A stretch of 64,000 nt of DNA from Syntrophomonadaceae bacterium (GCA_012519455.1 JAAYQE010000119.1:159-64158); one strand, 5' to 3'; counted from the stretch's first letter, positions 47,161-64,000 are shown. Numbers and translations: made by a program. The notes: generated from the letters alone by a model not told the origin.

Positions 47161-48219
47161 TTAATTAACCGTAAACTGCATTTGCACCGGTTGTTGCAAA
47201 CTTTTTCCCCCTGTGGATTTAATTTCTTTACTGAGGTTTAGAGTAAAAATTTGTCCAGGAGTATACCCCGTCCGTGGTGGTTTAACAACTACGGACTGTT
47301 GGTCCGGGCCGGGTTCTCTGGTTATACTAACCGGATAACCGCATTCATCGGTTACGATTACGTTTAATTTCGTTAGGGTGGTGGTATCGACCGGTAAATT
47401 AAACCGTATCGTCCATACTTTAAAAGGATCTTGGATTGTTTGAGCCTCCCAAATCTGAGGCGCTTCTGCTCCCGGCTCGGGCTGTGGCACCGGCGACTGG
47501 GTACTGTATTCCACATCTACACCCCGACTTTGCAAGGCCTCAATATGGACCAAGGCTAACGATCCGGGGCGAAGATCCAGATAATTATAAAACAGATCAA
47601 TGAAAGCTCCAGACCCCAGACCATTATTTTGACTGTTAAGCACTAGAGGAGTAATATCTCGGATTTGATTATTCCAAAGATATACCTCTTCTAGATTACT
47701 TAAACCCTGCAAAGCTGTGACCTCCGTGATCATATTTTCTCCGAGACTTAGGACTTGCAGGCCCGTAAGATTTACCAGGGCGGAAAGGTCACTGATTTGG
47801 TTTCCAGCAAGATAAAGCGTTTGTAGCCCATTAAGGTTGGCCAGAGGCGATAAATCTTCAATCTGATTATAACTAAGCTCTAACTCCTGTAAGCCGGTCA
47901 GAGAAGCCAACGCGGACAAATTACTAATCTGGTTCCCAGCTAGATAAAGACTTTCCAGGTTAACGGCGTATTCAAGACCGGTTAAATCACTAATCGTGCC
48001 TTGCTCTGCCGTTAAACTGGTTAACCCGGCTAAATCTCCTACCGACAAGGGGCTCGTACTTTTTCCCAGAGCCTCGAGTACCGCTGTTTCCAAACTAGGA
48101 TCATTAAAATTCACTATGTCTCCCGAACTTCCCGCAGCCAGGCTGGGTACTATCCCCAAATTTAAGGAGCAGATAAAAAACCATAAAACTAGAACTACGG
48201 TACGTACTCGGATAAGCAT
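47161..48219 (-). CDS. Secreted leucine-rich-repeat (internalin-like) protein with a C-terminal Big_5/SbsA-Ig-like module
   Basis: Signal peptide, then about 7 LRRs (LxxLxxLxLxxNQIxDLSxL), then ...FKVWTIRFNLPVDTTTL...YTPGQIFTLNLSKEIKSTGGKSL...QFTV. Confidence 0.75.
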   Translation of the reverse strand: MLIRVRTVVLVLWFFICSLNLGIVPSLAAGSSGDIVNFNDPSLETAVLEALGKSTSPLSVGDLAGLTSLTAEQGTISDLTGLEYAVNLESLYLAGNQISNLSALASLTGLQELELSYNQIEDLSPLANLNGLQTLYLAGNQISDLSALVNLTGLQVLSLGENMITEVTALQGLSNLEEVYLWNNQIRDITPLVLNSQNNGLGSGAFIDLFYNYLDLRPGSLALVHIEALQSRGVDVEYSTQSPVPQPEPGAEAPQIWEAQTIQDPFKVWTIRFNLPVDTTTLTKLNVIVTDECGYPVSITREPGPDQQSVVVKPPRTGYTPGQIFTLNLSKEIKSTGGKSLQQPVQMQFTVN

Positions 48220-48240
48220 CGGTTTCCTGGTTCAACCTCC

Positions 48241-49056
48241 TTACGGGTTATTCCCCTCGCTCGTTTCTTCGGCTGGTGTTGTTTCATCTTCAGCGGTGCC
48301 GGTGCTGCCATCTTCGGTAGTCCCTTCTTCAGTAGTACCGTCATTTATGGTTTCATCATCGGGATTGCTGGTTCCATCTTCAGTGGTTCCATCTTCAGTG
48401 GTTCCATCTTCAGTATTTTCGTCTTCAGTATTTTCGTCTTCAGTATTTTCGTCTTCTGGATCAATTATTTCGTCTTCCGTATCGGATTCAATCTGACTGA
48501 ATAAGCGATTCAGCAGTCCCGGAGAGATGACTAACCGCGCACGGGTGCTTTTTCCTTTGGTTAAGCTTACAGTATTACCATTAACTAGGGCTACTTTATT
48601 TTCCAGATCAATTTGAATCTGCTTCCCGTCTTTTTCTACTACCAACAGATTCGTCGTCTCGTCTAACGTAAAGTCAGCTCCGAAGCCATTGTTTATTGCG
48701 TTAACCGGTAGGAGTGCTCGCTGGTTCTTGATTACTTTAGAAGCTTTTTTCTCCTTATTTCGCTCCCGATTGTTTTCCTTGTTTTGTTTGTCTCCTTTAT
48801 TCTCTTCTTTGTTTTTCTCTACCTTACCCTTTTCCTTATCTTTATCCGGTTTACCCTGACCTTTATTCTTATCCTTGGTATCATCTTCAGCGATATTCTC
48901 TTCTTCAACCACCATTTGCTGAACATTAACGTTTTTTGCCTTTCCGGGCGCAGCGCCATTATTTCCCGGCCCACCTTTAGCTTCTACCAAACCGGCTGGG
49001 AATACAATAAGGGTAACGCTGATTAATAAGGATAGTAATTTTTTACATTTCGACAT
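48241..49056 (-). CDS. Secreted protein with a K/E-rich low-complexity region, a copper-amine-oxidase-N-terminal-like domain and C-terminal acidic T-E-D pentapeptide repeats
   Basis: Signal peptide. FTLDETTNLLVVEKDGKQIQIDLENKVALVNGNTVSL resembles the Cu_amine_oxidN1 fold. The C-terminus is (TEDEN)x3(TEDGT)x3. Confidence 0.55.
   Translation of the reverse strand: MSKCKKLLSLLISVTLIVFPAGLVEAKGGPGNNGAAPGKAKNVNVQQMVVEEENIAEDDTKDKNKGQGKPDKDKEKGKVEKNKEENKGDKQNKENNRERNKEKKASKVIKNQRALLPVNAINNGFGADFTLDETTNLLVVEKDGKQIQIDLENKVALVNGNTVSLTKGKSTRARLVISPGLLNRLFSQIESDTEDEIIDPEDENTEDENTEDENTEDGTTEDGTTEDGTSNPDDETINDGTTEEGTTEDGSTGTAEDETTPAEETSEGNNP
48370..48459. repeat. Six tandem 15-bp repeat units (three each of two variants) encoding the acidic pentapeptide repeats
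   Basis: ggttccatcttcagt x3 followed by attttcgtcttcagt x3. Confidence 0.8.
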
Positions 49057-49297
49057 CCACTAGCACCTCCATATAATTTGATCTATTTATCTAATCTTAA
49101 TTTACCAGTAAAATGCTCGTAATTCCATGCTCCGGAGGTCCTATTATCTTAGGTATATAGTTGGAAAAATGCCTATTTCTACAGCATAGAAAAATAATCG
49201 TTTTAACGTAAAACCAAAGAATATCGAGACCTTCTGAAAATCAAACCGTTTTCGGAGGGTCTTTCTTTTCCAAATTTTTTTATAGACAAAAGAAAAG

Positions 49298-49320
49298 TTA
49301 TATATTATCATTATAGTATA
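49298..49320. promoter_or_regulatory. Candidate Fur/PerR-type operator (AT-rich partial palindrome) in an AT-rich island
   Basis: gttatatattatcattatagtata contains an ATTATCA half-site of the Fur/PerR 7-1-7 box. The match is only partial. Confidence 0.25.
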
Positions 49321-49519
49321 CATTTATATATATTATGGAAAATTTTTATATTAACTGGCTAATTAAAATGATGCTTGTATGGGTTTGCTTAACATAAATT
49401 AAAAAAGGTTTAAATTATAAATATTGACATTTATTCTTCTTTAGTCTATTCTTAAAAACAGATCTAACCTTAAAGTTTATTTAATAACGTATTATTTTTA
49501 TTAAGAAAGGATCATGATT

Positions 49520-49960
49520 ATGAGACATTTGGCGGATCAAATTGAGGTAATGAAAAATAAGGGGTTTAAGGTAACCCACCAGCGCCTGGTCGTGTTAGAT
49601 TATCTACAGCATTCTAAAAAGCATCCCAGCGCAGAAATGATTTACAACGACTTAAAAGAAAAGTATCCTACGATGAGTCTTGCCACCATTTATAACACGT
49701 TGGAAATGCTCATGAAAATCAATTTAGTAGTTGATATTGGGGCGCCAGAGGAAAGACGCCGTTTCGATGGTATTTTAGTCGAGCATTCCCATTTTTTCTG
49801 CACCAAATGCGGCAAAATTGAAGATTTAACCGTTCCCGGTATAGAGCAGCTATTTGAAAAAGCGAAAGCCGCTCATCCTGGAACTATTAATCACTGCCGT
49901 CTGGACTTTTTCGGTTTTTGTGAAGAGTGCCAAGCACAAGAAGAACAAGCAGTTGAGTAA
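49520..49960 (+). CDS. Fur-family transcriptional regulator, PerR-like
   Basis: HQRLVVLDYL DNA-recognition helix and two CxxC pairs (HSHFFCTKCGKIEDL; HCRLDFFGFCEECQ). The whole protein is collinear with B. subtilis PerR as recalled. Start at the second ATG, 9 nt after AAAGG. Confidence 0.8.
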   Translation: MRHLADQIEVMKNKGFKVTHQRLVVLDYLQHSKKHPSAEMIYNDLKEKYPTMSLATIYNTLEMLMKINLVVDIGAPEERRRFDGILVEHSHFFCTKCGKIEDLTVPGIEQLFEKAKAAHPGTINHCRLDFFGFCEECQAQEEQAVE

Positions 49961-49998
49961 TAGGATTTATAAAACGTGGTTAGTTAAAAACTAACGGA

Positions 49999-50043
49999 TT
50001 AAACGCTTGATCAGGTTAAACACTTGATTCAGGATCGTTTAAT
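49999..50043. repeat. Tandem 17/18-bp direct repeats (TTAAACGCTTGATCAGG / TTAAACACTTGATTCAGG) bracketed by TTAAACG...CGTTTAA
   Basis: Seen directly between the PerR-like gene and the lipoprotein gene. Operator-like architecture. Confidence 0.4.
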
Positions 50044-50334
50044 TCGTTGGTAAAAAGGACCACCTGAAAGCCTTAAATTGGCTCTGGGCAGGTCTATTTT
50101 TTTTGCAAAAAATTAACGTTATATTTAGTTAGACAAAGCTTTCTTTTAATAAACTAAAATACCCCTGGATATTAAATAATTACGGTAAAAACAACCTATT
50201 TAAAAGGAAATTTAAAAATATTGCCGAATATAGATTTACCTAAATTTTTCAAAGGCCAATTACTTAATCAAAGGAAGGAGGGCTTAGAAAACTTTTCAAT
50301 ACGGGCCCAAGTTAGCTTAAGGAGGAAAAACATT

Positions 50335-51084
50335 ATGAGAAAAAAACGGTTTAGAAATAAAAAGTTGGTTTTGGTTTTGTCCCTTTTGATACTAACGAGC
50401 TTCCTTTTAACCGGCTGTGGCTCGAAATCAACCCCTGCCCCGGAACCCAGTACCCCGGCCACCCAAAGCGAAACCCCTGCGACCTCGAAGACGGAAAGCA
50501 TAGTAGACCTTTTAACTAAAGGGGAAAAAACTGAGGGAATTTATTACGATTTCACCGTTTCAGAAAATACAGAAACGTTACAAGGAAAAATGTGGATACA
50601 AGGCACTAAAGCTAAAACTGAAATGGTCGTAGAAGGGGAAACCATGATTAGCCTAATAGATGGTAATACTTTCTATACTTACCTGCCGGCGGAAAAAACC
50701 GCGCTTAAATTCACGGTCGACCAACAAACTGCCCAGCAAGCAAAAAACCAAAACCCCTACCTGGTCTTTTCTGAACTAAAAGATACTGTTGAAAACAAGC
50801 CAGATATTTACAAGGAATTAGATAGTGTCGTTTTTGACGGCGTAAAATGCCGGGTACTGGAGTATACAGACCCTCAAACTAAAGAACGCGCTAAAGTGTG
50901 GGTGCGCGAAGACTATGGTATTGTTTCTCGGGTAGAAGCCATCAATAACGATGGTAGCACCTGGGTCATGGAGGTAAAAAATATTAAAGTAGGCAGTCAA
51001 CCGGTAGAAGTATTCACCCTTCCCGCCGACGTGCCTATCACGGATATGGATGAAATGATGAAACAGTTGGGACAAAATAATTAA
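50335..51084 (+). CDS. Lipoprotein (LolA-like/DUF4367-like fold)
   Basis: AGGAGG 8 nt upstream. N-terminus MRKKRFRNKKLVLVLSLLILTSFLLTGCGS has a lipobox LTGC followed by a Pro/Thr-rich linker. Confidence 0.65.
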   Translation: MRKKRFRNKKLVLVLSLLILTSFLLTGCGSKSTPAPEPSTPATQSETPATSKTESIVDLLTKGEKTEGIYYDFTVSENTETLQGKMWIQGTKAKTEMVVEGETMISLIDGNTFYTYLPAEKTALKFTVDQQTAQQAKNQNPYLVFSELKDTVENKPDIYKELDSVVFDGVKCRVLEYTDPQTKERAKVWVREDYGIVSRVEAINNDGSTWVMEVKNIKVGSQPVEVFTLPADVPITDMDEMMKQLGQNN

Positions 51085-51196
51085 GATGCAAGAGGTATGT
51101 TTATTTAAAGGGGCAAAGTAGGATATAGTTTGGGAATAAAACGATATAATTAGGGAATAGAAAGATAAAGATATAGTTTGGGAATAGAAAATTTTT

Positions 51197-51248
51197 CAGG
51201 GGTAGGTCAGGAAAATAGTTTTTTCTGACCTACCCCTGATGTTTTAAG
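51197..51248. terminator. Bidirectional rho-independent terminator between convergent genes
   Basis: Perfect 14-bp stem CAGGGGTAGGTCAG / CTGACCTACCCCTG (51197-51210 and 51225-51238), followed by GATGTTTT on the plus strand. Confidence 0.7.
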
Positions 51249-53675
51249 TCATGCACCAGGGGGCCTCGGACCGGAGGCAGTAGTAAAATCAAGCCGCCAG
51301 CCGTGGACTAACCTTTTAACTCCATCCCGTTGTTTCACGTTATTACTGATGAAAAGCGTATAACCAGTGTCCGGCGCAAAAGGCGTCTGGTGCTTAACCA
51401 CTACCGTAGCTCCGCTCGCATCACCGCTCCAAATTTCCGGAACCACCGCAAAATCCTGTCCTTGCGCGGTCTGAATCCGGAAATAGCTTAAAGAAGTGGG
51501 ATCAACGGGTTGATTAAAACGGATTCGCCATTCCTTGTCTAGAGGTACTTCCGCGGTACCAGTGGTGCCTATCCATTGCTCATACTCCTCTTCTACCGGC
51601 AGCTGCAGCCCGGGATCATAGACGACCACCCCGGCATTTACACTGGCCAGCCCGCTGGACATACCGGCGGCAAAATAGACCCGGCCGCGGGTATCCACGG
51701 TCATAAGTTCTTCCTGCAGCTCGCTTACCGGGCTTACCGGGGCCAGGGCCTGGCTAAGATCCATATTGGCAGCTAGATCTCCGTTTAGAAAATGCAGGGT
51801 CCGGCCATCAAAAGCGCTACTGTCGCTGAGGGTCTCCCATTGGCCGTTTTGGGGATTATACTTTTGCTTGGCGGCGTTCCAGATCTGGCCCTGATCATCT
51901 TCGTAAACCCGATAACCGCTGCTGTAGCCCGAATTATCGCCGTTAGTAAAGGATTGCCATTGTTCCCCGTTTGCGGTCCTTTCCAGCAAGCTTACCCCAT
52001 ACCGGCCCTGCAGCCAGACCCGCTGCTGCCTATCCACCAGCACGCCGTAGTCCACGTAATCACTTGGCAGCCCGCTGTTATCTTGGGTAAAATGCCTCCA
52101 TGCACTGTGGGTGGGATTCAGATAATAAACCCCCTCGGCGGAGTAGAACCAGATACCGTCTTCCGCATCCCGATAGACCCCATAAAAGTAAACCTCCGAA
52201 CCCGGGAAGGCGGGCAGGTTCACCCATTCTTCCTGGGCCACATTATAGGCCAGAGGTTTTTGCCTTTGCGGGACAATAAAGATATGGTCCTGCGCATCAG
52301 CCACCACTCCTACAATACCGAATTCTCCCAGCTGTACGCGCTCAAATTGCTGCCAGCTACCGTCCGCCTTCAGCCGCGCTAGGCTGGGACAATCATAGGA
52401 GGCAAACCAGACCCCGCCTTGCCGGTCCGCAGCTACCCCGGCAATACGGTTGGAAGCCAGGCTGGTGCTGCGGCTGCGGTAGTCGTAGGAAATCAGTTGC
52501 TCGGTTTGCGGCTGCCCCTGGTCATTGAGCGGTAGATAGTGTACCCCGGTCCCATTGCCGGGAACACCAGGATTATAGCCGGTTACAAAGCAGATCCCCT
52601 TATTAGTGGAAGCTAGGGAAATAATGTCTTCGCTCTGGAGCCCCAGGCTGCTACCGGTATATGCGGTCCAGTTACCCCCGCTCTCGGTCGGGGTGTAACG
52701 CAGTAGGCCACCATAATAAAGCCCAAACCAGATACTGCCGCTTTTATCCTCGACCAGGCATATGACCTGGTTAGAGGTGGAGAACAGGCCCCGCAAGTCA
52801 TAATGCGCCCATTTTCCATCAGCCTGGTAACAATACACGCCTTGGGAAACATAGGCATTGGAGATAAACCACAAGTTGCCCCGACGGTCCTCCAGGATGC
52901 CGGTCACCGGGGTCTCCACCGGGGGAAGCGACTGCTGGTCAGGAAACAAGGTATTCACGTTGGCGGTATTCAAGAGATGGTCACCCATCTCCAGTCCATT
53001 GTTGCGACCGACCCAATACCGGCCCTGGCTATCGATCAAAGCATCGTTAAACATATAATTATTGTAGGAAGATTCCCGCGGCCGCACTGCAGCCAGCCGG
53101 TAAGACGCATCGATCAGGGCCAGACCGTCGTAAGATATAAGGAGAACCTGCAGGCTACCATCGTTTTTCTCCAGCAGACGGATGCGTTGGAAATCATTAG
53201 TCGACAGCTGTTGGTCGGTATTCGCTTGAGTAAAGCTCAGCCATTGCCCGTCAGCTTTTTCACACCAAACGCCTTTATCTTTCAAGGCATACCAAGTATT
53301 CCCCCGGGAATCGGGCAGGACATACACGACTTCAGCCGATAAGTACGGTTTGTGGATGAAGTTGATAAAGCCCGCTCCCAGGTAATTGTTTTTCTGGTTA
53401 TTGGTTATATAGTCGACCTTGCCGGTTTCAGGATCTAGGCGCCAAACACCCGGATCGTATTCTTCCACCGCACTCATCCACAGCTGCCCCTGCGTATCCG
53501 GGTTTATTTCCGCCGGACGGAAAGGGACGTGGTTGGTGCGCAAACGATACCAGGCAGCTTGGTCCGACTGCGTTTCCGCCATCACTAAGGAAGGAAGCGT
53601 TAAAAACAAAGCTCCAATAATGAAGAAACAGATAAAAATCGGGGCGTATCGTTTCGGATAGCGAGTAAAGTCCAT
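51249..53675 (-). CDS. Secreted beta-propeller protein (two-component-regulator-propeller/Reg_prop-like repeats) with a C-terminal Big_5 module
   Basis: Signal peptide. Multiple D..G.lW.g...G repeats (DSRGNTWYALKDKGVW; DRRGNLWFISNAYVSQGVY; DKSGSIWFGLYYGGLLRY; DRQGGVWFASYD...). C-terminal ...EWRIRFNQPVDPTSL...GYTLFISNNVKQRDGVKRL...DFTTAS. ATG at 53675 with GGGAGG upstream. Confidence 0.7.
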   Translation of the reverse strand: MDFTRYPKRYAPIFICFFIIGALFLTLPSLVMAETQSDQAAWYRLRTNHVPFRPAEINPDTQGQLWMSAVEEYDPGVWRLDPETGKVDYITNNQKNNYLGAGFINFIHKPYLSAEVVYVLPDSRGNTWYALKDKGVWCEKADGQWLSFTQANTDQQLSTNDFQRIRLLEKNDGSLQVLLISYDGLALIDASYRLAAVRPRESSYNNYMFNDALIDSQGRYWVGRNNGLEMGDHLLNTANVNTLFPDQQSLPPVETPVTGILEDRRGNLWFISNAYVSQGVYCYQADGKWAHYDLRGLFSTSNQVICLVEDKSGSIWFGLYYGGLLRYTPTESGGNWTAYTGSSLGLQSEDIISLASTNKGICFVTGYNPGVPGNGTGVHYLPLNDQGQPQTEQLISYDYRSRSTSLASNRIAGVAADRQGGVWFASYDCPSLARLKADGSWQQFERVQLGEFGIVGVVADAQDHIFIVPQRQKPLAYNVAQEEWVNLPAFPGSEVYFYGVYRDAEDGIWFYSAEGVYYLNPTHSAWRHFTQDNSGLPSDYVDYGVLVDRQQRVWLQGRYGVSLLERTANGEQWQSFTNGDNSGYSSGYRVYEDDQGQIWNAAKQKYNPQNGQWETLSDSSAFDGRTLHFLNGDLAANMDLSQALAPVSPVSELQEELMTVDTRGRVYFAAGMSSGLASVNAGVVVYDPGLQLPVEEEYEQWIGTTGTAEVPLDKEWRIRFNQPVDPTSLSYFRIQTAQGQDFAVVPEIWSGDASGATVVVKHQTPFAPDTGYTLFISNNVKQRDGVKRLVHGWRLDFTTASGPRPPGA

Positions 53676-53734
53676 GATCAATTCCTCCCTGAAATTTCGC
53701 TTTCGTCCTTGGCTGAACCCTTAGCCGGGCCTAA

Positions 53735-56700
53735 TTACTCGACCCGGCATTTGTTAGTTTTTAGCCAATTAATAATCTCGCTAGCCTTGGAACCCGCTGA
53801 TAAATCAAGCTTATCATTATCCAATATGCCTAAATATTTTAAAAGGGGCAGATTTTTTAAAACGCTGATATCGGTGATTTGATTTCTACTAAGGCAAAGG
53901 AATGTAAGTTTAGTTAAATTGGATAAGGCTTCGATATCTTTGATCAGGTTACCGTTTAGATTCAGATTATCTAAATTGGTTAATCCAGACAATGGGGTCA
54001 AATCGCTGATTTGGTTGTCGTACGCCTCAATGTCCCATAAACTGGTCAACCCTGATAGCGGGCTAATATCATCAATCGTGTTCACTGATATAATAAGAAC
54101 CTCCAGGTTAGCCATATTTGCTAATACGCTGATGTCAGTTATTTGATTGCATCTGAGCCAAAGCTCTTTTAAATTCCTCATTTGGCCCAATGGGGTAATA
54201 TCACTGATTTGATTGCCGCGCAGGTCAAGTTTCTCCAGGTTAACAAGTCCCGCAATTGGAGTTAGGTCGTTGATCAGACCGTGCCCTTTACTATAGCCAT
54301 CCTCAGAGGACAGTCTTAGGTTTGTTAGTTTTGTCAAACTAGATAAGGGGCTAAGGTCACTAATAATATAATTCGGTATCCAAAGGGTTTCAAGATTTGT
54401 TAAACCGGCTAGGGGGCTAAGGTCAATATGAAATTTAAAGTAGCCTTGATCCGGGTTTAGATAAAGGGTTTTAAGATTTGTTAAACCGGCCAGCGGGCTA
54501 ATATCAGAGATGTCGTTCCACGTTAGGTTGAGTTCTTGTAAGTTTACCGCATATTCTAATCCGGTTATATTGCTAATTTTTTTGTTACTGGCATCCAACT
54601 CCAATAAACCTTCCAGGTCCGATTTGATCAGATCGCCCGTGGGTTTATTCAGTTTAGCGCGGATAACAGCTTCCAATGCTGGGTCGGGAATATTAATCAC
54701 CTGGTCTCCCTGGGATACTTCTAAAATTACACTGATGCTGTCCTGGCCCAACAGCATCCCGGTCAAATCATACACCTGCACCTTGGGCTTGTAATTGCCC
54801 ACCCCGGTATAGGTATGGCTGATGTTGGAACCGGGGCCGGTTACACTTTGCACCGGGCTGCCGTCACCGAAGTCCCAGTCAAACCGGTAGGTGCCGGCTG
54901 GCGTTACCACCGCTTCAAAAGCATGGGTAGCTTCGGTAGCCCCGTCCTTTAATTCATAGGTGATTATCCGGGGCGGTAAAATAGAAACGGTTACCTCTTC
55001 CTTGGGAATGGTAATGGTAGCCATGGCTTGGGACATGGTGTTATCGTTTAGATCCAACATTTTTACCTGCAAGGTATAGCTACCGTCCTGCATATACTTG
55101 TGGCTAATAATCGTTTGGGCGTCTCCATTGAAAACCGGCACAATTTCGTTTCCCTGGCTTAAGTTGGATTCATCTTTGCTTTCCCCGTCACCAAAATCCC
55201 AGACAAAATTAACTGATGTATATTCCTTCGGAATGTTCTGGGCCTTTACGGTAAAATCATATTGCCGGCCTAACTGGGCTTCTAGTTCTGCCGGGTCAAC
55301 GGTAAAATCTAATTCTTTGACTTTCAGGGCCACAGACTTTCCTTCAGCTGTACCGTTGGAGACTAAGACAAAGAGTAACTGTCCCGGCGCTACCGTCACA
55401 ATTGTGGAGGTCGCGGCCTTTTGCAGAGAAGCCCTCGGCGCTGGCAGCCCGGTGATCCACTGGTGATCATAAAGCACAAACACATCGACAAATACCCCGG
55501 CAGGCAAATCTTCATCCAGTTCCAGGATTAAACTGCGGGATGGGGATGCACTGCCGATTTCCGGCTTGATGCCCCATAACTGCGCAGTGTATTTAGACAA
55601 ATTAAAGGTTTTAGACAAATTTTTCGTCGTTAGCGGCATCTCGGTTTGCTGGGCCATCTCATAAGGGGTCCGCCAGGTATCCGAACCTTCATGGGCCGGG
55701 CTGTCGCTGCTGAAGATCAGGTATCGCGCGAAATCACGGTAACATTCGGCCAGGGAGGTTCCCTTTTCTTGACGCAGAAAACTATCGATTACTGCAATCA
55801 TGTCGGTGCTCCAGGCGCCGGTGGTATGGTTCCAAAGCTGCATAAAACTAGCCCCTTTATGGCGCACCAGGTAATCAACAAAGCGGGCGCTTTGGTATTC
55901 ATGAACGCTGTCGGTGGTCCCCATAGATTTTTGTAAGTAGGTTTCGTTTATGGCTACATATTTTTTGGTCCCCATTATTTCCGCGGCCGCATAGTCAGCG
56001 GTGGCTTCCACCCACCAGCGGTTTAAAGCCATGTTGGCAAAGGTCAGGTACTGGTTTTGGGCGGCATGGAAAAATTCATGGGCGCAGTCGTGCTGTAGTT
56101 CCGTTAAATTATCGTACTGGATAGGGATTTCGATGTTTTTGGAAAACCAGCCCCAGTTGGCGGTTGCGTCCGTACCCCAGTCGTCTATATATACTTTGGT
56201 CATGGCGGGCAGTTTAAAACCGGTGCCACCATATGTTTTGTATTGAGCATAGGCATCCACCAGGGAGGTTCTGGCATTAGTCACAAACTGGTAGAGATAG
56301 TCCGTGACGTAATCGGGATCTTGAGGCGCTCCGATCAGTTTGGGCGCATTTAAATTCTGGTTAAAATAAATCTTAAAATTAGGGGCGCTGGTTACCACCA
56401 TGTTATCTTCCAAGCCGAAAATTGACCACAGGGATAAGTGGTTAGTCGATACGATAATCTCGTGGTTGTCTTGGTCTACCGTGAAGTCTGTTTCTATCCA
56501 TCTTTGATTTTCCTCATCAAAATAGGCGACCACCAGTTGGTCGGCCGGTTCATATGCAGCGGTTAAGCGGGAGGGGTCGTATTTAAAGCGCAGGGTTAAG
56601 TCCCCGATAAAGGCTGCTCCCAAGGAAATATTATAAGTAGCGTGGGTTTCCAGATCGTTAAATTCATGCCGCTTGGCCCCACTAACCTCTTGGATCGATA

Positions 56701-57220
56701 CCGGGGTGCCGCTACTGACGGTATTGGCTGGAATTTCAACGGAAGCCTTATCCTGGTAGGTAACAACCTTACTTTCATTAGGGTTATCGATGACTCCATC
56801 TACTCGCCCTAATACGGTTAATTGCGCCGGTGCTTCGGTTACAAACTCCTTCTTCGCCGGCTGCGCTAGTACTTTTCCTGATTGGGATTTTACTCCTTCA
56901 ACTATTAAGGTGTATTTAGTATTGGACTCGTAGCCGCCCGTAGGTGGTTTTACTTTGACCGATTTACCGTCAGCAAGGACTTCCGGAGCCGAATCGAATA
57001 CTTTTTCTCCGCTGCAGCTGTTAACTACTTTGATACGGTCTGAGGTTACCGAATCTTGATCAATAAAATCATTAAACTTAATGGTCCATTCCTTATTAAC
57101 GCTGATATCACCGTCGGACGGAAAAGTTTTGGTTTCGGTGGCACTGGCGAACGCATAGGTCGAACTAAGCAATATAAAAGTCAGTAACAAAAAAAATAAC
57201 CGCAATTTAATCTTACCCAT
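53735..57220 (-). CDS. Secreted multidomain zinc metalloprotease (gluzincin HExxH-x19-E) with an N-terminal Big_5 module, two PKD domains and C-terminal LRRs
   Basis: ATG at 57220 with AAGGAGG upstream. Signal peptide, then ...EWTIKFNDFIDQDSV...KYTLIVEGVKSQSGKVL (Big_5). HEFFHAAQNQYLTFANMALNRWWVE has thermolysin spacing. Two PKD signatures (ISHKYMQDGSYTLQVKMLDLNDN; ISHTYTGVGNYKPKVQVYDLTG). C-terminal DISPLAGLTNL... LRRs. Confidence 0.7.
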   Translation of the reverse strand: MGKIKLRLFFLLLTFILLSSTYAFASATETKTFPSDGDISVNKEWTIKFNDFIDQDSVTSDRIKVVNSCSGEKVFDSAPEVLADGKSVKVKPPTGGYESNTKYTLIVEGVKSQSGKVLAQPAKKEFVTEAPAQLTVLGRVDGVIDNPNESKVVTYQDKASVEIPANTVSSGTPVSIQEVSGAKRHEFNDLETHATYNISLGAAFIGDLTLRFKYDPSRLTAAYEPADQLVVAYFDEENQRWIETDFTVDQDNHEIIVSTNHLSLWSIFGLEDNMVVTSAPNFKIYFNQNLNAPKLIGAPQDPDYVTDYLYQFVTNARTSLVDAYAQYKTYGGTGFKLPAMTKVYIDDWGTDATANWGWFSKNIEIPIQYDNLTELQHDCAHEFFHAAQNQYLTFANMALNRWWVEATADYAAAEIMGTKKYVAINETYLQKSMGTTDSVHEYQSARFVDYLVRHKGASFMQLWNHTTGAWSTDMIAVIDSFLRQEKGTSLAECYRDFARYLIFSSDSPAHEGSDTWRTPYEMAQQTEMPLTTKNLSKTFNLSKYTAQLWGIKPEIGSASPSRSLILELDEDLPAGVFVDVFVLYDHQWITGLPAPRASLQKAATSTIVTVAPGQLLFVLVSNGTAEGKSVALKVKELDFTVDPAELEAQLGRQYDFTVKAQNIPKEYTSVNFVWDFGDGESKDESNLSQGNEIVPVFNGDAQTIISHKYMQDGSYTLQVKMLDLNDNTMSQAMATITIPKEEVTVSILPPRIITYELKDGATEATHAFEAVVTPAGTYRFDWDFGDGSPVQSVTGPGSNISHTYTGVGNYKPKVQVYDLTGMLLGQDSISVILEVSQGDQVINIPDPALEAVIRAKLNKPTGDLIKSDLEGLLELDASNKKISNITGLEYAVNLQELNLTWNDISDISPLAGLTNLKTLYLNPDQGYFKFHIDLSPLAGLTNLETLWIPNYIISDLSPLSSLTKLTNLRLSSEDGYSKGHGLINDLTPIAGLVNLEKLDLRGNQISDITPLGQMRNLKELWLRCNQITDISVLANMANLEVLIISVNTIDDISPLSGLTSLWDIEAYDNQISDLTPLSGLTNLDNLNLNGNLIKDIEALSNLTKLTFLCLSRNQITDISVLKNLPLLKYLGILDNDKLDLSAGSKASEIINWLKTNKCRVE

Positions 57221-57475
57221 ATCCGAATCCTCCTTTTTGTGGTCAGACTTTACTTGGTAACTGACGGTAAAAGCTGTTTTTATTTTTCTTAATTTTACCA
57301 CGAAAACTTTGTCTAATAAAGGAAAAAACCTCTGGAAATTGGTAGTTCTTAGAAGTTTTTTCCTTTATTGTCCGTCATTTTTATAGAATATATCGAGATA
57401 TCCGGTATCTATAGTTCAATCACAAAGGATGTTCAAGTACGGTTACGCTTTCTGATTTTAGGTAGTATCCGGTGC

Positions 57476-59668
57476 CTATGGCTTAATCACAAAGGGCATG
57501 GCTACCGCTGTTTTCAAAGCCGTTCCATCCGCATCTTGCAGCGACGTTTTGATGTGCAGAGTGTATCTAGCGCCTAGAGAATAGTTTTGTTGCGGCTTAA
57601 CCGTCACCTTCTTGTTACCGTCCGACCAATTAAGCTCTACTTGGACCCGATTGCCGTCGGCCGCTGTCACATAAATATTGTCAGCAGCTGTAGCGGTGTT
57701 AACCGGTTTATTAAATTGAACGTTCCAGTTCTTGCTCGCTTCTACCGGCCAGTTGTCATAACCCTGCTGCCAACTCGGCTTGCGACCGATATCCAGGGAG
57801 TAGCTGCGCTTGGTCCGGTCGGGCTGGGTTACCTCTACGGTCACAGGGTTCCAGCCGGCAGCCAGGTTTACCACCCCGCCGCTCTGCACCGCCCCGTTTA
57901 ACTTAACCACGGCGGTGGTACCAGCTACAGCGGTAGGTACTACTTTAACCACGTCTACGGTGTTTTCCACTTCGGTGCGGTAAGTAAAGGTATTGCCGGC
58001 AAACCCGGTCAAGTATTCAATGCCGCTCCCGTCCGCCTTGCCTTTCACGCTTAGGCCAGTCAGGGGCTCGGCCAGGCGGAGACGCTTAATCTCAATCGTA
58101 TAGGTTAGGTCGTCCTTGCCCTCTTCGCTGACGACGATTTCAACCTTATTCAAACCTGGATCAACGACCAGGTTGACGATTCCGTCATTCTGCTCCGTGC
58201 CGTTTACCTTGACCACAGCGGTGGCACCGGCAACCGGAGTCGGGGTGATTTTAACCGCCTCCAAGGGATTCTCCACAGTCATCGTGTAACCGGTAGTGTT
58301 AGGCGTAAAGCAGGTAAGCAGTTGGGCCGGGCCGCTGCCGTCCGCCATTTGTACGCTCAGACCGGTGAGGGGCCGGGCCAGCTGGGGAATGCCTTCCACC
58401 TGTACCGGAAGATAATTGTCGTGCTGTTCTATCCCCAGTTGGAAGGAATCGTTTGTACCCCATCCCCATACCGTGCCATCGTTTTTCAGTGCCAGGGAGT
58501 ATTCGCACCCGGCTGCGATGGATACAACATCGGTAATATCCTTGGTCTCTACCGGCGTACTACTGGCATCGTCCTCTCCGTCACCTAGAGCACCGTAGTT
58601 ATACCCCCAGGCCCAAACTTTTCCGTCCTTTTTCACAGCCAGACTGTGAGTTTCGCCGCAGGTGATCGCCTTTACATCACTTAGATAACCCAAATTATAA
58701 AACCCGTGGACCTGCACCGGGATCGAGCTATGATTTTCCGTTTCATCGGTCAAGCCGTCACCCAGGCGCCCTACATAGTGTCTTGCTCCCCAAGCCCACA
58801 CCATACCGTCGTTTTTTAGCGCCAGGGAGAAATGATCTCCAGCCTCAATGCTTTTAACGTCAGACAGGTTTAATACCTGAACCGGATAAATTTCATCGGA
58901 GAAATCTTCTCCATTACCCAGGACACCCCAATTACCACCACCACCCCAGGCCCATACCGTGCCGTCGTTCTTCAACGCCAAGCCGTGAAAACGGCCGCAG
59001 GCGATAGCCTTAACGTTATCCAGATACCCGTCGCCTCCCAGGCCTTTGACTTTTTCCGGGGTGTTGGATTGGGATTCCAGGCTTCCCCTGCCCAGTTCAT
59101 TATCAGTGTTATTACCCCAGGCCCATACATAACCGTCTTTATCCAGCGCCAGGGAGAAAAATTCCCCACCGGCAACGGCTGTCATATCTTGCAGGCCTGG
59201 GATTTGTTGCGGCGAACTATGATTTTGCGCGGCCATTTGACCCAACTGGCCTTTTTCATTATTTCCCCAGCCCCATACGGTGCCGTCGTTTTTCACGCCC
59301 AGGGAATGCCAGCGCCCGCTAGCAACGTGTTTAAATCCCTGGTTAAACCCCTCGTCGGTTAATAAGACCGGGGGTTGTTGACCATTTCGTGGGTCCCCTC
59401 CGGTAATGATCTCACCATTACCCACTTGACCATAATCATTTTTTCCCCACCCCCATAGCTTCAGGTCCTGCCGGAGGAAAAAACCGGTTGCATCGCCCGC
59501 CACTACCTGCGGCGCTATTAACTGGGTTCCCTCCACTACACTGCAGTTTCTGACCATAGAATCCTGGGCCACCGCCGGCATAACTGCTCCCAAACTCAAC
59601 AATAGGGATAATAAAAATACCAGAGCGATCGATCTACCCCTGTTTTTAAAAAACCATTTCCTTTGCAT
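57476..59668 (-). CDS. Secreted RCC1/BLIP-II-repeat beta-propeller protein with two internal Ig-like segments and a C-terminal Big_5 module
   Basis: AAAGGAG upstream of the ATG at 59668. Signal peptide. Seven or more RCC1-like repeats (GWGKNDYGQVGNG; WGWGNNEKGQLG; WAWGNNTDNELGRG; WGWGTNDSFQLG...). C-terminal ...NWNVQFNKPVNTATA...RYTLHIKTSLQDADGTAL...PFVIKP. Confidence 0.75.
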   Translation of the reverse strand: MQRKWFFKNRGRSIALVFLLSLLLSLGAVMPAVAQDSMVRNCSVVEGTQLIAPQVVAGDATGFFLRQDLKLWGWGKNDYGQVGNGEIITGGDPRNGQQPPVLLTDEGFNQGFKHVASGRWHSLGVKNDGTVWGWGNNEKGQLGQMAAQNHSSPQQIPGLQDMTAVAGGEFFSLALDKDGYVWAWGNNTDNELGRGSLESQSNTPEKVKGLGGDGYLDNVKAIACGRFHGLALKNDGTVWAWGGGGNWGVLGNGEDFSDEIYPVQVLNLSDVKSIEAGDHFSLALKNDGMVWAWGARHYVGRLGDGLTDETENHSSIPVQVHGFYNLGYLSDVKAITCGETHSLAVKKDGKVWAWGYNYGALGDGEDDASSTPVETKDITDVVSIAAGCEYSLALKNDGTVWGWGTNDSFQLGIEQHDNYLPVQVEGIPQLARPLTGLSVQMADGSGPAQLLTCFTPNTTGYTMTVENPLEAVKITPTPVAGATAVVKVNGTEQNDGIVNLVVDPGLNKVEIVVSEEGKDDLTYTIEIKRLRLAEPLTGLSVKGKADGSGIEYLTGFAGNTFTYRTEVENTVDVVKVVPTAVAGTTAVVKLNGAVQSGGVVNLAAGWNPVTVEVTQPDRTKRSYSLDIGRKPSWQQGYDNWPVEASKNWNVQFNKPVNTATAADNIYVTAADGNRVQVELNWSDGNKKVTVKPQQNYSLGARYTLHIKTSLQDADGTALKTAVAMPFVIKP

Positions 59669-59836
59669 CGCGAACTCCTTTCTCTAGGTTAAATTCAGGT
59701 TAAATTGCGCTTCTACACTGCCTTTACTCCTTTACATCGCTTCTCCCCCTCAAACCTTAAATTAAGATAATATTTCTACATAAAACAAATTATTCCTGCT
59801 GATTTTGCTAATTTCTACATGTTTTTGGCTGCCACA

Positions 59837-60659
59837 CCTGCCACAGGGACGGTCCTTGTGGCAGGTAGAAGCACCCGAAAAGTGCTATGATGAAACAGGG
59901 GGTAATACTATGCCAAGAACGGCCAGAAGAAAAAGCGAAACAGGTATATATCATTTGATTTTACGGGGGATAAACCGACAAACTATTTTCGCAAATGAAG
60001 AAGACGCTATAAAATTTATACAAACTCTAGAAAAGTATCAAAAGAAGAGCGAATTCAAATTATACGCATACTGTTTAATGAGCAACCATGTGCATCTGCT
60101 GATGAAGGAAGAAAAAGAAGCCTGCTTGGAACTCGATGAAAAGAAGAAATGGAAAGACCAGGAGGCCATTGAGTTAATCAAGTATGTGTGCCAGATAAAC
60201 CATTGCAATGAACTGCAGAATCTGGATCGAGAAAAACAGGGTGCATATTTAAAACAGCTCTGTACCGAGGGTTTATCGGTCAGACAAATTTCTAGAATAA
60301 CTGGGATTGGCAGGTGGGTAATACAGAAGGCAGTTAAAAGTTGAAATACAGCACCACAACACCCATTTTCTCTAATGTCTCGCGTGTCTCGCTATATTTG
60401 GATTGTTTTAATGGAGCCAACTCAAATTCATAATAATCATCCCTTAGGCTGAAAAAAATGGCGCCGCAAAAAATAACCAAGGCAGACCCTGTAGCACAAG
60501 TCAGCGTTAAGGAATAAACAGGGCAGACCCTGTAATAAGTAGGCGCTAACTGACTCAACAGGACGTTAGCGCCGTAAACAACAAATCAGATATAGCTTAT
60601 GTTGACAGTATGTGACCCTAGCCAGCCACAAGAACCGTCCCCGCGGCTGCCGTGGCTGG
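59837..60659 (+). mobile_element. IS200/IS605-like or RAYT-like element: a Y1 HuH transposase-like gene bracketed by mutually inverted hairpins
   Basis: Left hairpin CCTGCCACA-gggacggtcct-TGTGGCAGG (59837-59865). Right hairpin CCAGCCAC-...-GTGGCTGG (60622-60659), whose reverse complement contains GGGACGGTTCTTGTGGCTGG, homologous to the left hairpin. Internal duplicated about-40-bp units (GGCAGACCCTGTA x2) and a 9-bp stem GGCGCTAAC/GTTAGCGCC. Confidence 0.5.
59910..60344 (+). CDS. IS200-like (Y1/HuH) transposase-related protein with a C-terminal HTH
   Basis: GGGGGT RBS 8 nt upstream. ...GIYHLILRGINRQTIFANEEDAIKF...FKLYAYCLMSNHVHLLM (HuH motif). C-terminal LSVRQISRITGIGRWVIQKAV is a helix-turn-helix. 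Confidence 0.65.
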   Translation: MPRTARRKSETGIYHLILRGINRQTIFANEEDAIKFIQTLEKYQKKSEFKLYAYCLMSNHVHLLMKEEKEACLELDEKKKWKDQEAIELIKYVCQINHCNELQNLDREKQGAYLKQLCTEGLSVRQISRITGIGRWVIQKAVKS

Positions 60660-62276
60660 TTACTGTAGATCTTTAATAGTAAAATTCATTTTAATTTGCT
60701 TGCCTAATGGTGACCCAGTTAGGCTTTTGACCTTCGAACTGATGAAAAGGGTATAGGTCTGCCCTGGCTGATAGTAGAAAACTCCATCAGCCTTCATGAT
60801 AACCGAAAGCTTATTAAATGTTAGTTCCGGTTTTATATCTTCAACTATCTGGCCGGTCTCATCTTGGACATAAAAGTTATTAGAGGTAACTGTCTCCGGG
60901 TCGATTTCAGTACTAAAATTAATAATATAATTTTTATTAGTCGCTACGTTTGTTTTTTCTTCCCATAAAACGGTCTGCACTTGGCTACCAATAGTATCAT
61001 CGTCCATAATTAATACCCTGGTGCGAATGTTATCACCAATAATGGCGTTCCCCGTCACATTTCTCAGATATACATATAGGGTTTTAATATCCCCGGCCGC
61101 ATCATTATCCACAATTGTCACCGGGATGGTCATTGAGGTAACTCCAGGCTCGAAAACCAACGTGCCTTTAGTTTCAAGGTATTCATTCGGTGCTTTGGCA
61201 CTGCCATCTAGTGTGTAGTACTCCACAGTTACCGTTTCCTGCATATTGCCGGTGCGAGTAACGGTTATCATCGCCGTGCCGTCATTTTCCTTTACCTCCT
61301 GAGTAAGTTTTGAAAATTGAAGAACACCAGATTCGACTGACATAAAACTTGCGCCTTTGATAAATACGTTGGAATCAAAAATATAATCGCCCGCATCAGC
61401 GATAGCCATCCGGATCGTATTCATCTGGCCCACCTTAACAGGGGCAGTCACGGTCAGTACTGTAGTCAGACCGTCCATCTCCGTCATTATCTGACCACCG
61501 AATTCGTTGTCTCTATAATACTGATTGTGCAGATCGTTATTTATATTATTGATAGCTACCGGGAAGTCAGTATTAGGAATCAAAGCAATGTTCTTACCGT
61601 TAAGGAAAAAACCGAATACATCATTGAACTCGGTACCAACATACTCATTATATTCATCAGAAGAAAACACATAATCAAATGACAAAGTATTCTCAGAGGG
61701 AATAAAATCGAATTCAAGAATTGTAGCATCATTGGTTTCATATCCAGGAACTAGCAGGTTTAAGTGTTCATCACCGGCAAGATCGTTCACATGGGTCATA
61801 TTACCCTCAGCATTTGGACCATCCGCATACCGTATATTGCCGGTACTTAATATAACTCCCTCGTTAAAACCAATAATATTTCCATCCGCCGCGGTAAAGG
61901 AGCCTGCAGCAACGTCGGTGCCTGTGTATCTTACATTTACTATTTGTACACCTTCACCCATTATTTGCTGCACTAATTGCTCTGCTGTCTGCTTGGAAAG
62001 ATCCTTGGTGATAATATATTTAGTGCCTTTTTCGGGATATAAGTCCCCATCATTCCACCCGTCATCAATGTCATCAATGTCATCAAAACTCTGCGTTTTA
62101 ATGACATTATTAGCGACTAGGTCTATAGTTCGAGTTCTTTCCAAAGTATTCTCTTCCTGATTAGACCCTTGTGCGAAAGCCCTCGGCGATCCTATTGCAA
62201 AGATCAAGAAAAAAACCATCGCCGTTGCTATAGCTGTCGCAATTGTGGCCCCCATTTTACTTTTAGGCTTATTCAT
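60660..62276 (-). CDS. Secreted protein with an N-terminal beta-sandwich domain, a Calx-beta domain and a C-terminal Big_5 module
   Basis: Signal peptide (ATG at 62276, 9 nt after AAGGAGG). Calx-beta signature YYTLDGSAKAPNEYLETKGTLVFEPGVTSMTIPVTIVDNDAAGDIKTLYVYLRNVTGNAIIGD. C-terminal ...NYIINFSTEIDPETV...TYTLFISSKVKSLTGSPL...NFTIKD. Confidence 0.7.
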   Translation of the reverse strand: MNKPKSKMGATIATAIATAMVFFLIFAIGSPRAFAQGSNQEENTLERTRTIDLVANNVIKTQSFDDIDDIDDGWNDGDLYPEKGTKYIITKDLSKQTAEQLVQQIMGEGVQIVNVRYTGTDVAAGSFTAADGNIIGFNEGVILSTGNIRYADGPNAEGNMTHVNDLAGDEHLNLLVPGYETNDATILEFDFIPSENTLSFDYVFSSDEYNEYVGTEFNDVFGFFLNGKNIALIPNTDFPVAINNINNDLHNQYYRDNEFGGQIMTEMDGLTTVLTVTAPVKVGQMNTIRMAIADAGDYIFDSNVFIKGASFMSVESGVLQFSKLTQEVKENDGTAMITVTRTGNMQETVTVEYYTLDGSAKAPNEYLETKGTLVFEPGVTSMTIPVTIVDNDAAGDIKTLYVYLRNVTGNAIIGDNIRTRVLIMDDDTIGSQVQTVLWEEKTNVATNKNYIINFSTEIDPETVTSNNFYVQDETGQIVEDIKPELTFNKLSVIMKADGVFYYQPGQTYTLFISSKVKSLTGSPLGKQIKMNFTIKDLQ

Positions 62277-62361
62277 AGCCATTATCCTCCTTTTTTGTTA
62301 AACCTTATACAAAAATCTCTTTTCATTTTACCACATCAGGTAATAAATGTAACTACAAGAA

Positions 62362-64000
62362 CTATGGAATAACCGTAAACGACATTTTAATCGCCTTTTT
62401 CAAATTGCAATTGCTGGTTGATCGAACGCCTTTCTCAATATAAAGGAAATAATCACCGGGAAGGTAACCATCGGGATGCGGCATTATGACTATTTTATTA
62501 TTCTGGGCCTGGTGAGGGGAAGTGATGACTGCTTGGCCGAGAACCGTTTTTACATAGATGTTTTGGGAAAAACTTAATGGATCTACGTCCTGGTTTAAGG
62601 TAATAGTAAAAACATGATCTGGTTTTACGGTTAGCTTCTTTTCCCAAAGTTGATAATCCCCTACGGGAAGGGCAGAATATCTTTGATATTTGAAGGTCAT
62701 GCAAGTGACATTGCCATTCGTATCGAGGGTTAGGTCGATATGGGTAATTAAGAATTTGTAATAATGCTCACCTACTTTAGCCCAGTAGGCATGCCCAGAA
62801 ATAGCGGGAATCTCATCCGCATATCCGGAAGCGGGGGGAGTGATGAGCTGATCCAGAGTACTGCTGCCCATATCAATAAGGTTTCCTCTTAAGCTTGGAT
62901 TTGCAGACGTACCGACCAGTTCTAGATCGTCACTATATTGGTCCGGGTTTCCTGTCCAGAAGCTGAAAGCCTCGCCCTTAGTAAAGTCAAAAGCGGCCCC
63001 GGTGCTCCAGTGGTTACTCAAAATAATGGAGTCAGGGTCAGTATTAATATTAATGCTATAACTGGCACTGGCCGTAGCGCTGTCGTTCATGCCCTCTTTA
63101 CTGGCTTTGGCTTTGATGGTCAGGCTGTTGTTAACTTGGATAGGCGCTGTGTAGATGTTTGAGTTATCCGTTGGTTCTGTGCCATCAGTAGTATATCGAA
63201 TGGTGGCCCCATTAGTGGCTGAACTGATGGTTACCTGCTGGACCGTGGTGTAAGAACCGCCGACCGGGTTAAAAACTGGAGTTTCCACGCTTTCAACGGG
63301 AGTGTCCGACCTGCCGGCCGCATAACATACAAAGTAACTTTTCCCGTTGTAATTATTGTAGGCGGCAAAATAAATGCGTCCCTCTTGATCCATAATCAGG
63401 TTGGAGGTAATCGAACGGTAATCATCATCACTCGAGTTAATGGACTTTTGCCAGAGCAGCTGCCCGGAGGCATTTAATGCATAAAGATGGGCCGATTGGG
63501 CTCCAAAATAAACATTGTCTTTTGTATCGACAATTGGACTGCGGTATGGTGTGCCAAGTTCACTGACTTCCCAATTTTGTTGACCGTTAGATATATTGTA
63601 GGAAGACACCTTGCTGTCCGTCCATTCCAAGGCAATAGCCTGGTTATTCTCGTTTACAGCCGGTTCACCGCCTAAGCTTCGTCCTAGCTTGAGTTCGGCT
63701 GGCCAAAGCATTGCCCCCGTGACCGGGTTTAGTATGTACAACCCACTATAATAATGGTTTGCAATCAAGAGCGACCCGTCACTGGCCACAACCGGGGTTC
63801 TATTGGTATGCATATTACTAATAGACCAGACGATATCGCCGCTGGCCGCATTGAGTGCACTAACCGTTCCCCACTCATTTCCCGCATAGATTACTTTCTC
63901 GTCATTGGAAAGGGTACAACCATACAAGTAACCGCCGCCAATATCGGTATTCCAATACTCGGTTCCATCCTTCCCGTTAATTGCATAAATTTGGTTAGTC
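62362..64000 (-). CDS. Secreted PQQ-like beta-propeller protein with a chitobiase/Fn3-like (CHB_HEX_C-type) domain and a C-terminal Big_5 module; the 5' end lies beyond the window
   Basis: The frame stays open upstream of the ORF-track TTG at 63927 (...TNQIYAINGKDGTEYWNTDIGGGYLYGCT...). PQQ/BamB-like repeats (...GDIVWSISN..., ...GAMLWPAE..., ...GQLLWQKS...). IRYTTDGTEPTDNSNIYTAPIQVNNSLTIKAKA is a CHB_HEX_C-like motif. C-terminal ...HVFTITLNQDVDPLSF...DYFLYIEKGVRS...SFTVIP. Confidence 0.7.
   Translation of the reverse strand, partial: TNQIYAINGKDGTEYWNTDIGGGYLYGCTLSNDEKVIYAGNEWGTVSALNAASGDIVWSISNMHTNRTPVVASDGSLLIANHYYSGLYILNPVTGAMLWPAELKLGRSLGGEPAVNENNQAIALEWTDSKVSSYNISNGQQNWEVSELGTPYRSPIVDTKDNVYFGAQSAHLYALNASGQLLWQKSINSSDDDYRSITSNLIMDQEGRIYFAAYNNYNGKSYFVCYAAGRSDTPVESVETPVFNPVGGSYTTVQQVTISSATNGATIRYTTDGTEPTDNSNIYTAPIQVNNSLTIKAKASKEGMNDSATASASYSININTDPDSIILSNHWSTGAAFDFTKGEAFSFWTGNPDQYSDDLELVGTSANPSLRGNLIDMGSSTLDQLITPPASGYADEIPAISGHAYWAKVGEHYYKFLITHIDLTLDTNGNVTCMTFKYQRYSALPVGDYQLWEKKLTVKPDHVFTITLNQDVDPLSFSQNIYVKTVLGQAVITSPHQAQNNKIVIMPHPDGYLPGDYFLYIEKGVRSTSNCNLKKAIKMSFTVIP

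Follow-up and report, generated by a model that had tools for sequence, protein, structure and literature searches.

An array of Syntrophomonadaceae exported proteins with unrelated heads and a shared terminal Big_5-type module

Why does one bacterial locus encode a series of exported proteins whose main parts are unrelated to each other and which all carry the same small domain? This question is raised by a 64-kb stretch of DNA from a Syntrophomonadaceae bacterium (hereafter, the window), in which an array of such genes occupies the zone from 47.1 kb to the window end (64.0 kb). A preliminary description had proposed that six secreted proteins with different heads each carry one copy of a Big_5/SbsA-type immunoglobulin (Ig)-like module, that the module may dock them onto a common scaffold, S-layer or wall polymer, and that the locus is not a described system. 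Syntrophic fatty-acid oxidizers such as Syntrophomonas depend on close contact with methanogens for their growth and, to our knowledge, almost nothing is known of the surface proteins behind this contact. The locus encodes domain kinds that are used for cell-cell and cell-matrix binding. Our solid finding is a conserved, expressed Syntrophomonadaceae locus of exoproteins, each built of a variable head and one terminal module of a Trp-containing Big_5 type. This modular exoprotein family is genuine, and no description of it was found in the literature. Searches of main texts for Big_5, SbsA Ig-like domains and the Swol_015x-018x locus tags of Syntrophomonas wolfei returned nothing on the locus, and we found no paper that names or discusses either locus or module, in agreement with the preliminary description.

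Six exported proteins and their shared module

A scan of open reading frames (ORFs) and Pfam families recovered all of the proposed genes as six large minus-strand ORFs between 47.1 and 64.0 kb, with mutually unrelated heads that agree almost exactly with those first described. The N-terminus of each ORF has a basic stretch, then a hydrophobic stretch and then an Ala-rich cleavage-like site, that of the sixth (PQQ) gene being read from its full-length copy on contig L001, and all six products are predicted to be signal-peptide, Sec-exported proteins.

The first gene, LRR352 (47161..48219), identical in sequence to NLK52192.1 from a Syntrophomonadaceae metagenome-assembled genome (MAG) of a biogas reactor, encodes a signal peptide, an internalin-like LRR region (Pfam LRR_4/LRR_8), a Pro-rich linker and a C-terminal module (47164..47460; aa 254-352) that extends up to the stop codon. 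RegProp810 (51249..53681) has a signal peptide and Reg_prop beta-propeller(s) recognized by Pfam, and ends in a module (51273..51584; aa 700-803) with 7 residues after it. Prot1188 (53735..57301), whose start is probably an ATG 27 codons further downstream, giving 1161 aa, carries its module (56831..57133) directly after the signal peptide, followed by a HExxH zincin region, two PKD domains and an LRR region. The earlier label of a thermolysin-like protease with PKD and LRR holds for the PKD and LRR parts; family scans gave no thermolysin (M4) match, and the zincin assignment alone is backed, by an HEFFH motif and weak matches to MXAN_6640_HExxH and M1-type zincins. RCC1_730 (57476..59668) has a signal peptide, a 7-blade RCC1 propeller, two cadherin-like sandwiches and a C-terminal module (57479..57781; aa 630-730) reaching the stop codon, and is 69% identical to its orthologue, the RCC1 protein of the S. 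wolfei subsp. methylbutyratica locus. Calx540 (60660..62282) has a signal peptide, a choice-of-anchor L domain, a Calx-beta domain and a C-terminal module (60669..60974; aa 437-538) with 2 residues after it. Its match to choice-of-anchor L (NF038133; cut-off, 27 bits) scores 250.7 bits (E = 1e-74) and aligns aa 102-313 with positions 2-219 of the 219-position model, and the head is a full-length member of that family. The cadherin-like and choice-of-anchor L domains come on top of the RCC1 and Calx-beta heads already described. The PQQ gene (62362..64000), which runs past the window end at its 5' side, encodes a PQQ_2 propeller, a CHB_HEX_C_1/Fn3_assoc domain, a region without assignment and, as its last 97 aa, the module (62365..62655); the full-length protein on contig L001 has 758 aa with a signal peptide. 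This gene is the outermost of the array on the 64,952-nt source contig, which is part of the biogas-reactor MAG, with nothing beyond it, and the count of at least six genes therefore cannot be extended here because the contig ends past it.

Between the six genes lie four others that the preliminary description had also listed. A 271-aa secreted protein (48241..49056, minus strand) combines a Lys/Glu-rich N-terminal stretch, a Cu_amine_oxidN1 domain and a tail of acidic TEDxx repeats (TEDEN/TEDGT) with a 15-nt period (48278-48482); it has no module and may be wall-associated, since an S-layer candidate of S. wolfei ends in the same type of domain. A Fur-family, PerR-like regulator (49514..49960) is encoded on the plus strand in an AT-rich stretch, GC dropping to 0.33 at 49-50 kb. 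A lipoprotein with the lipobox LTGC (50221..51084, plus strand) has no more than a weak LolA-like match (24 bits). The fourth gene (59805..60344, plus strand) is a truncated Y1_Tnp/RAYT-like one that matches over its N-terminal HUH half alone. Two features of the non-coding DNA were also seen. Between the convergent LolA-like and Reg_prop genes, three direct 27-nt repeats (51114-51188) precede a hairpin with an apparently perfect 20-bp stem (51196-51239), which resembles a bidirectional terminator. The extreme 3' end of the RCC1 gene, comprising its last codons, the stop and 10 nt more, recurs as an 83% identical 30-nt copy 67 nt downstream of the true end (57399-57428 and 57466-57495), which may be a trace of recombination at the 3' end of a module.

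The six modules, all on the minus strand as are their genes, are each about 100 aa long, and their full-length alignment gives pairwise identities of 25-35%. A profile made from any five finds the sixth at 46-73 bits (73, 46, 49, 51, 65 and 55 bits in the order given above), and the remaining 616 six-frame ORFs in the window gave no score with the module profile, even at E = 10. One module per protein, at the C-terminus except in the protease, where it is N-terminal, is thus borne out by alignment and profiles. Scanned singly, all six had Big_5 (PF13205) as their best Pfam family, over model positions 9-105 and at 27.7, 39.1, 36.8, 48.8, 40.0 and 20.4 bits, respectively; against a gathering score of 23.6 bits, five modules (27.7-48.8) lie above the cut-off and the PQQ copy (20.4) below it, the module of the S. 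wolfei PQQ orthologue scoring 33.6 bits. The modules therefore belong to Big_5 and are closer to each other (46-73 bits) than to the generic family (20-49 bits). A failure of the six segments to align significantly, which would have counted against the preliminary description, is not what we observe. Structure prediction of a module alone, a check that the preliminary description had suggested, gave a confident AlphaFold2 model of a seven-strand Ig sandwich (LRR352 copy; predicted local distance difference test score, 92). By structure comparison the fold matches Big_5-type domains, namely TssM Ig, LdtMt2/5 BIg and SbsC, and also CopC and alpha-2-macroglobulin MG domains, which places the module among Ig-like beta-sandwiches of the SbsA/SbsC, Ldt BIg or TssM type.

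Big_5 itself is a very large family: the six-module profile finds 8,704 representative proteins at E <= 1e-3, and the best 150 of them are almost all giant proteins with up to 30 copies in tandem. Such typical domains, repeated within giant proteins, have a first strand of the form 'sP.dGat.V'. The modules of the locus are instead single and terminal, with this strand replaced by a Trp-containing one, followed by the motif K-x-W-T-[IV]-x-F-[NS]-x-x-[VI]-D. Because of this N-terminal strand and the K-x-W-T-[IV]-x-F-[NS] motif, we label the subfamily W-type. A profile of 14 W-type sequences (A2) scored mostly 56-96 bits on W-type copies outside its training set (a distant Bacillota array and Peptoclostridium litorale); when 148 Big_5 proteins with tandem repeats were scored, their best domains reached no more than 56 bits (median, 32). 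Three divergent members (S41, TGase590 and PPC375) scored 29-42 bits with A2, and the subfamily edge is blurred to that extent. With mutual recognition above generic Big_5, the Trp strand with its motif and a single terminal copy, the module is, as judged from sequence, a real and specific unit and a distinct Trp-containing subfamily of Big_5. A search for homologous proteins yielded one short fragment with module alignment A1 and three with A2, its word index being too coarse for a short divergent domain.

Arrays in relatives, module history and expression

Module arrays were found at three other places, so that clustering in related genomes, raised as a check in the preliminary description, holds for both S. 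wolfei subspecies and for a more distant Bacillota contig. The array of S. wolfei subsp. methylbutyratica (L003) has six module genes within 16 kb, which encode an RCC1/cadherin-like protein, a 1062-aa Big_7 protein, a PQQ/CHB_HEX_C protein, an S41 peptidase, a transglutaminase/cadherin-like protein and a 653-aa protein with two copies. In the S. wolfei Goettingen type strain (L067), the 22 kb scanned hold five module genes, for a PQQ propeller, an S41 peptidase (weak), a transglutaminase, a 653-aa protein and a He_PIG protein, together with a choice_anch_L/Calx gene that is interrupted by the end of the locus. The distant Bacillota contig (L063/L066) has 6-7 module genes, for a PD40 propeller, a transglutaminase, an LRR protein, a choice_anch_L/Calx protein 54% identical to that of the window, a 574-aa protein, a 168-aa near-bare module and a PPC protein. 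The same module is thus fused in relatives to further heads, among them S41 peptidase, transglutaminase, PD40 propeller, He_PIG and PPC. A metagenome scan with the RCC1 orthologues returned S. wolfei-like arrays and generic RCC1 proteins without the module, and nothing else.

In the type strain the orthologues Swol_0161 (RCC1) and Swol_0163 lie just upstream of the 22 kb scanned, and the block has Swol_0161 (184.7 kb) at one end and the choice_anch_L gene (215.5 kb) at the other; the Swol_0161 sequence seen covers its first 400 aa, so that a C-terminal module is outside this view. The block lies upstream of mnaA (Swol_0184), degSU, comF and flgK/flgL. The window has a like order, its array being placed upstream of galU, mnaA (44.8-46.0 kb), a DegU-like response regulator (41.2 kb), comFA (37.5 kb) and flgK/flgL (31-35 kb), and the two arrays are therefore positional orthologues. 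No further module copy occurs in the remainder of the window (1-47000), which is an ordinary Firmicute backbone; besides the genes just named (with flgL/flgK and comFA among them), this part holds those for enolase, iPGM, sigma-54, PGI, uvrC/uvrA/uvrB, a CodY-like regulator and phosphoglucomutase. The distant Bacillota array is flanked (L063/L066 1-9700) by a 934-936-aa SLH protein, a Cu_amine_oxidN1-cyclophilin (PPIase) fusion, a TPR protein, an S8 peptidase and SecA, an arrangement that recalls S-layer/secA2 loci of other Firmicutes. All arrays examined contain a Y1_Tnp/RAYT-like gene (window 59805-60344; L003 13130-13993; L063 19478-20194; L067 1-590, Swol_0164), with copies 33-38% identical between lineages.

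The position of the module was compared among 21 proteins that carry it; they come from four lineages and have at least 12 unrelated heads. The W-type copy is terminal in all 21, at most 10 residues from the C-terminus in 17 and directly after the signal peptide in the other four; one of these proteins also has an internal canonical Big_5 domain. Identity is 47-65% in orthologous pairs of modules and about 26-27% in the remaining pairs, the median for non-orthologous modules being 27% within a genome and 26% between genomes. No high-identity DNA repeats were found between the modules of the window. As the modules follow their heads and share no DNA repeats, the fusions are old and the modules have not been homogenized; concerted evolution or recent gene conversion among modules was discarded on these grounds, together with the equal identities within and between genomes.

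The array genes are transcribed in S. wolfei, some of them very strongly. In co-culture RNA-seq, the PQQ-propeller gene (193,937-196,540) had a baseMean of 9602 and a value of 64 in bi-culture in the fourth-from-last column, which we read as expression rank, and it was 3.8-fold higher in bi-culture with Methanospirillum hungatei alone than in tri-culture (PMC11087674 supplement). The same data give baseMean values of 2713 for Swol_0172, 3166 for the choice_anch_L gene, 2039 for Swol_0170 and 1271 for Swol_0161, with the Y1_Tnp-like Swol_0164 barely transcribed at 21 (PMC11087674 supplement). Within the type-strain block, Swol_0171 (L067 12201-15554; 1117 aa), which has no Pfam domain and no module, had a baseMean of 10568; for this gene and the PQQ gene, expression in bi-culture exceeded that in tri-culture 2.7- to 3.8-fold (PMC11087674 supplement). 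By shotgun proteomics, Swol_0161 was detected under each of the three growth conditions and Swol_0165 ('WD40-like') in butyrate co-culture alone (PMC4324140 supplement); Swol_0165 is probably the PQQ protein.

Candidate roles of the module

The likeliest single reading, at somewhat less than even odds, is that the module is a common targeting domain that would keep these exoproteins non-covalently at the S-layered envelope of the producing cell, a task which SLH, CWB2 or LPXTG perform elsewhere among Firmicutes. The heads (LRR, propellers, cadherin-like, Calx-beta, PKD, proteases and transglutaminase) would then be exposed for adhesion and remodelling of the surface, perhaps towards methanogen partners. 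This reading fits the docking idea of the preliminary description and rests on architecture and on the exchange of terminal parts between homologous heads.

As to architecture, the module is strictly terminal on at least 12 unrelated heads. No SLH, LPXTG, CWB2, LysM or Cu_amine_oxidN1 was found in the six window proteins or in those of L003, and the recorded Pfam lists of module proteins from the distant Bacillota array and the type strain include none of them. As to exchange, among 120 homologues of the choice-of-anchor L head the 15 closest have the module 1-3 residues before their end and the remaining 105 do not have it. Heads with both choice_anch_L and Calx-beta end in SLH in other Bacillota (P0181, P0185, P0188 and P0205). 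More distant choice_anch_L homologues lacking Calx-beta end in LPXTG (P0220), PEP-CTERM (P0245) or a T9SS domain (P0269), and none of these signals occurs alongside the module. Some RCC1 propellers of other phyla also end in a T9SS domain. The expression data given above show that the genes are in use, and a structured surface for docking exists in S. wolfei, whose dominant S-layer candidate (Swol_0133/SWOL_RS00720; 812 aa), its most expressed gene, has a C-terminal Cu_amine_oxidN1 domain (PMC3582634, PMC11087674).

Other results weigh against an anchor. No binding partner was found, and the Y1_Tnp-like gene is the sole gene without a module that is conserved across arrays; the Cu_amine_oxidN1 protein, the lipoprotein and the PerR-like regulator of the window and Swol_0171 have no counterpart in other arrays, and a conserved scaffold encoded by the locus was rejected for this reason. 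The positions conserved among modules (W, I/V, F, Y, L, G) are those of the general Big_5 consensus. Module net charge varies from -7 to +7 and pI from 4.2 to 9.8, and a basic module that binds anionic wall polymer was rejected accordingly. Modules of one genome resemble each other no more than those of different genomes, which gives no sign of co-evolution with a single ligand. The first 400 aa of the S-layer candidate have no similarity to the module. Many choice_anch_L homologues end in other Ig-like domains (PKD, Big_1) and have no recognized anchor, so that a terminal Ig domain need not be one. The 15 orthologues with the module represent a single fusion event. The choice_anch_L/Calx/module gene is solitary in P. 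litorale and in a Heliobacteriaceae MAG; in the latter (L065 1-15589) it is next to a cluster that resembles a contractile injection system, with sheath, gp19 tube proteins, an AAA ATPase and eCIS_core.

The next most probable reading, less likely than anchoring, is a passenger Ig domain: an ordinary Big_5 sandwich with a structural role (folding, solubility, protease resistance or spacing) on proteins released into the medium, the array being the product of old tandem duplication and exon-like shuffling. The size of Big_5, its generic fold, the generic conserved residues, the varied charge, the lack of a conserved partner gene, the homologous heads ending in other Ig-like domains and the solitary genes favor it. 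Against it, a first or last domain has nothing to space, the module is a separate subfamily with its own Trp strand, it excludes known anchors in the Calx head family, and arrays recur in lineages whose choice_anch_L/Calx orthologues are about 54% identical.

A less probable reading is a module that works like a carbohydrate-binding module and would direct the heads to an external target such as the sheath or S-layer of the methanogenic partner, a matrix polymer or another abundant surface. It agrees with the single terminal copy, the adhesin-like or degradative heads, the higher PQQ expression in bi-culture, the detection of Swol_0165 in syntrophic butyrate growth alone, and two proteins made of little besides module(s), the 168-aa protein of L063 and the 237-aa P0134, as would suit a free binding protein. 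Against it, no aromatic platform or conserved surface could be shown, the module also occurs in P. litorale, which is not known to be a syntroph, and the exchange with SLH and LPXTG points to self-anchoring.

An export or maturation aid like the pre-peptidase C-terminal (PPC) domain, cleaved off later perhaps by the S41 or S8 peptidases of the arrays, is unlikely. C-terminal beta-sandwiches of similar size act in this way in secreted proteases, and S41 and S8 peptidase genes lie in or beside the L003, distant Bacillota and type-strain arrays. However, most heads (LRR, RCC1, Calx-beta) are not enzymes in need of latency, four proteins have the module at the N-terminus, one protein of the distant array has a PPC domain as well as the module, and PPC (PF04151) has no match in the window.

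In organization the locus is most like the slpA/cwp locus of Clostridioides difficile, where many Sec-exported surface proteins with unrelated heads (protease, adhesin, amidase) have one constant part at either terminus and a large share of their genes cluster near envelope genes. The constant part there is three CWB2 repeats (PF04122) that bind the PSII polymer, and no CWB2 was found in the window. SLH proteins such as the BSLs of Bacillus anthracis also join a variable head to a terminal wall-binding part, but SLH (PF00395) is a three-helix repeat that binds pyruvylated wall polymer, and it is absent from the module proteins scanned or on record. Cellulosomal dockerins likewise put one small constant part on many secreted proteins, often from clustered genes; dockerin (PF00404), a duplicated 22-residue Ca-binding repeat, and cohesin (PF00963) are absent from the window, no array has a scaffoldin-like gene with repeated receptor domains, and the module has no Ca-binding repeat. 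The likeness to cohesin-dockerin and SLH systems is therefore one of organization. A T9SS sorting domain does not fit either, with no PF18962 match, four N-terminal modules among 21 proteins and a Firmicute host. Choice-of-anchor L describes the Calx540 head and not the module, and a terminal Big_5 domain is not known to be among its listed anchor types.

With a lower probability than anchoring in general, the W-type module may be a surface-display domain of Syntrophomonadaceae and some other Clostridia that has so far gone unrecognized, and the positionally conserved array a toolkit for physical contact with methanogens. If the module does retain or target these proteins, it would join the short list of Gram-positive surface-anchoring modules (SLH, CWB2, LysM, GW, LPXTG), its HMM would help to list the displayed surface proteins of these organisms, and it could serve as a display tag for engineering them. 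If it is a passenger domain, the locus is an ordinary island of paralogous exoproteins.

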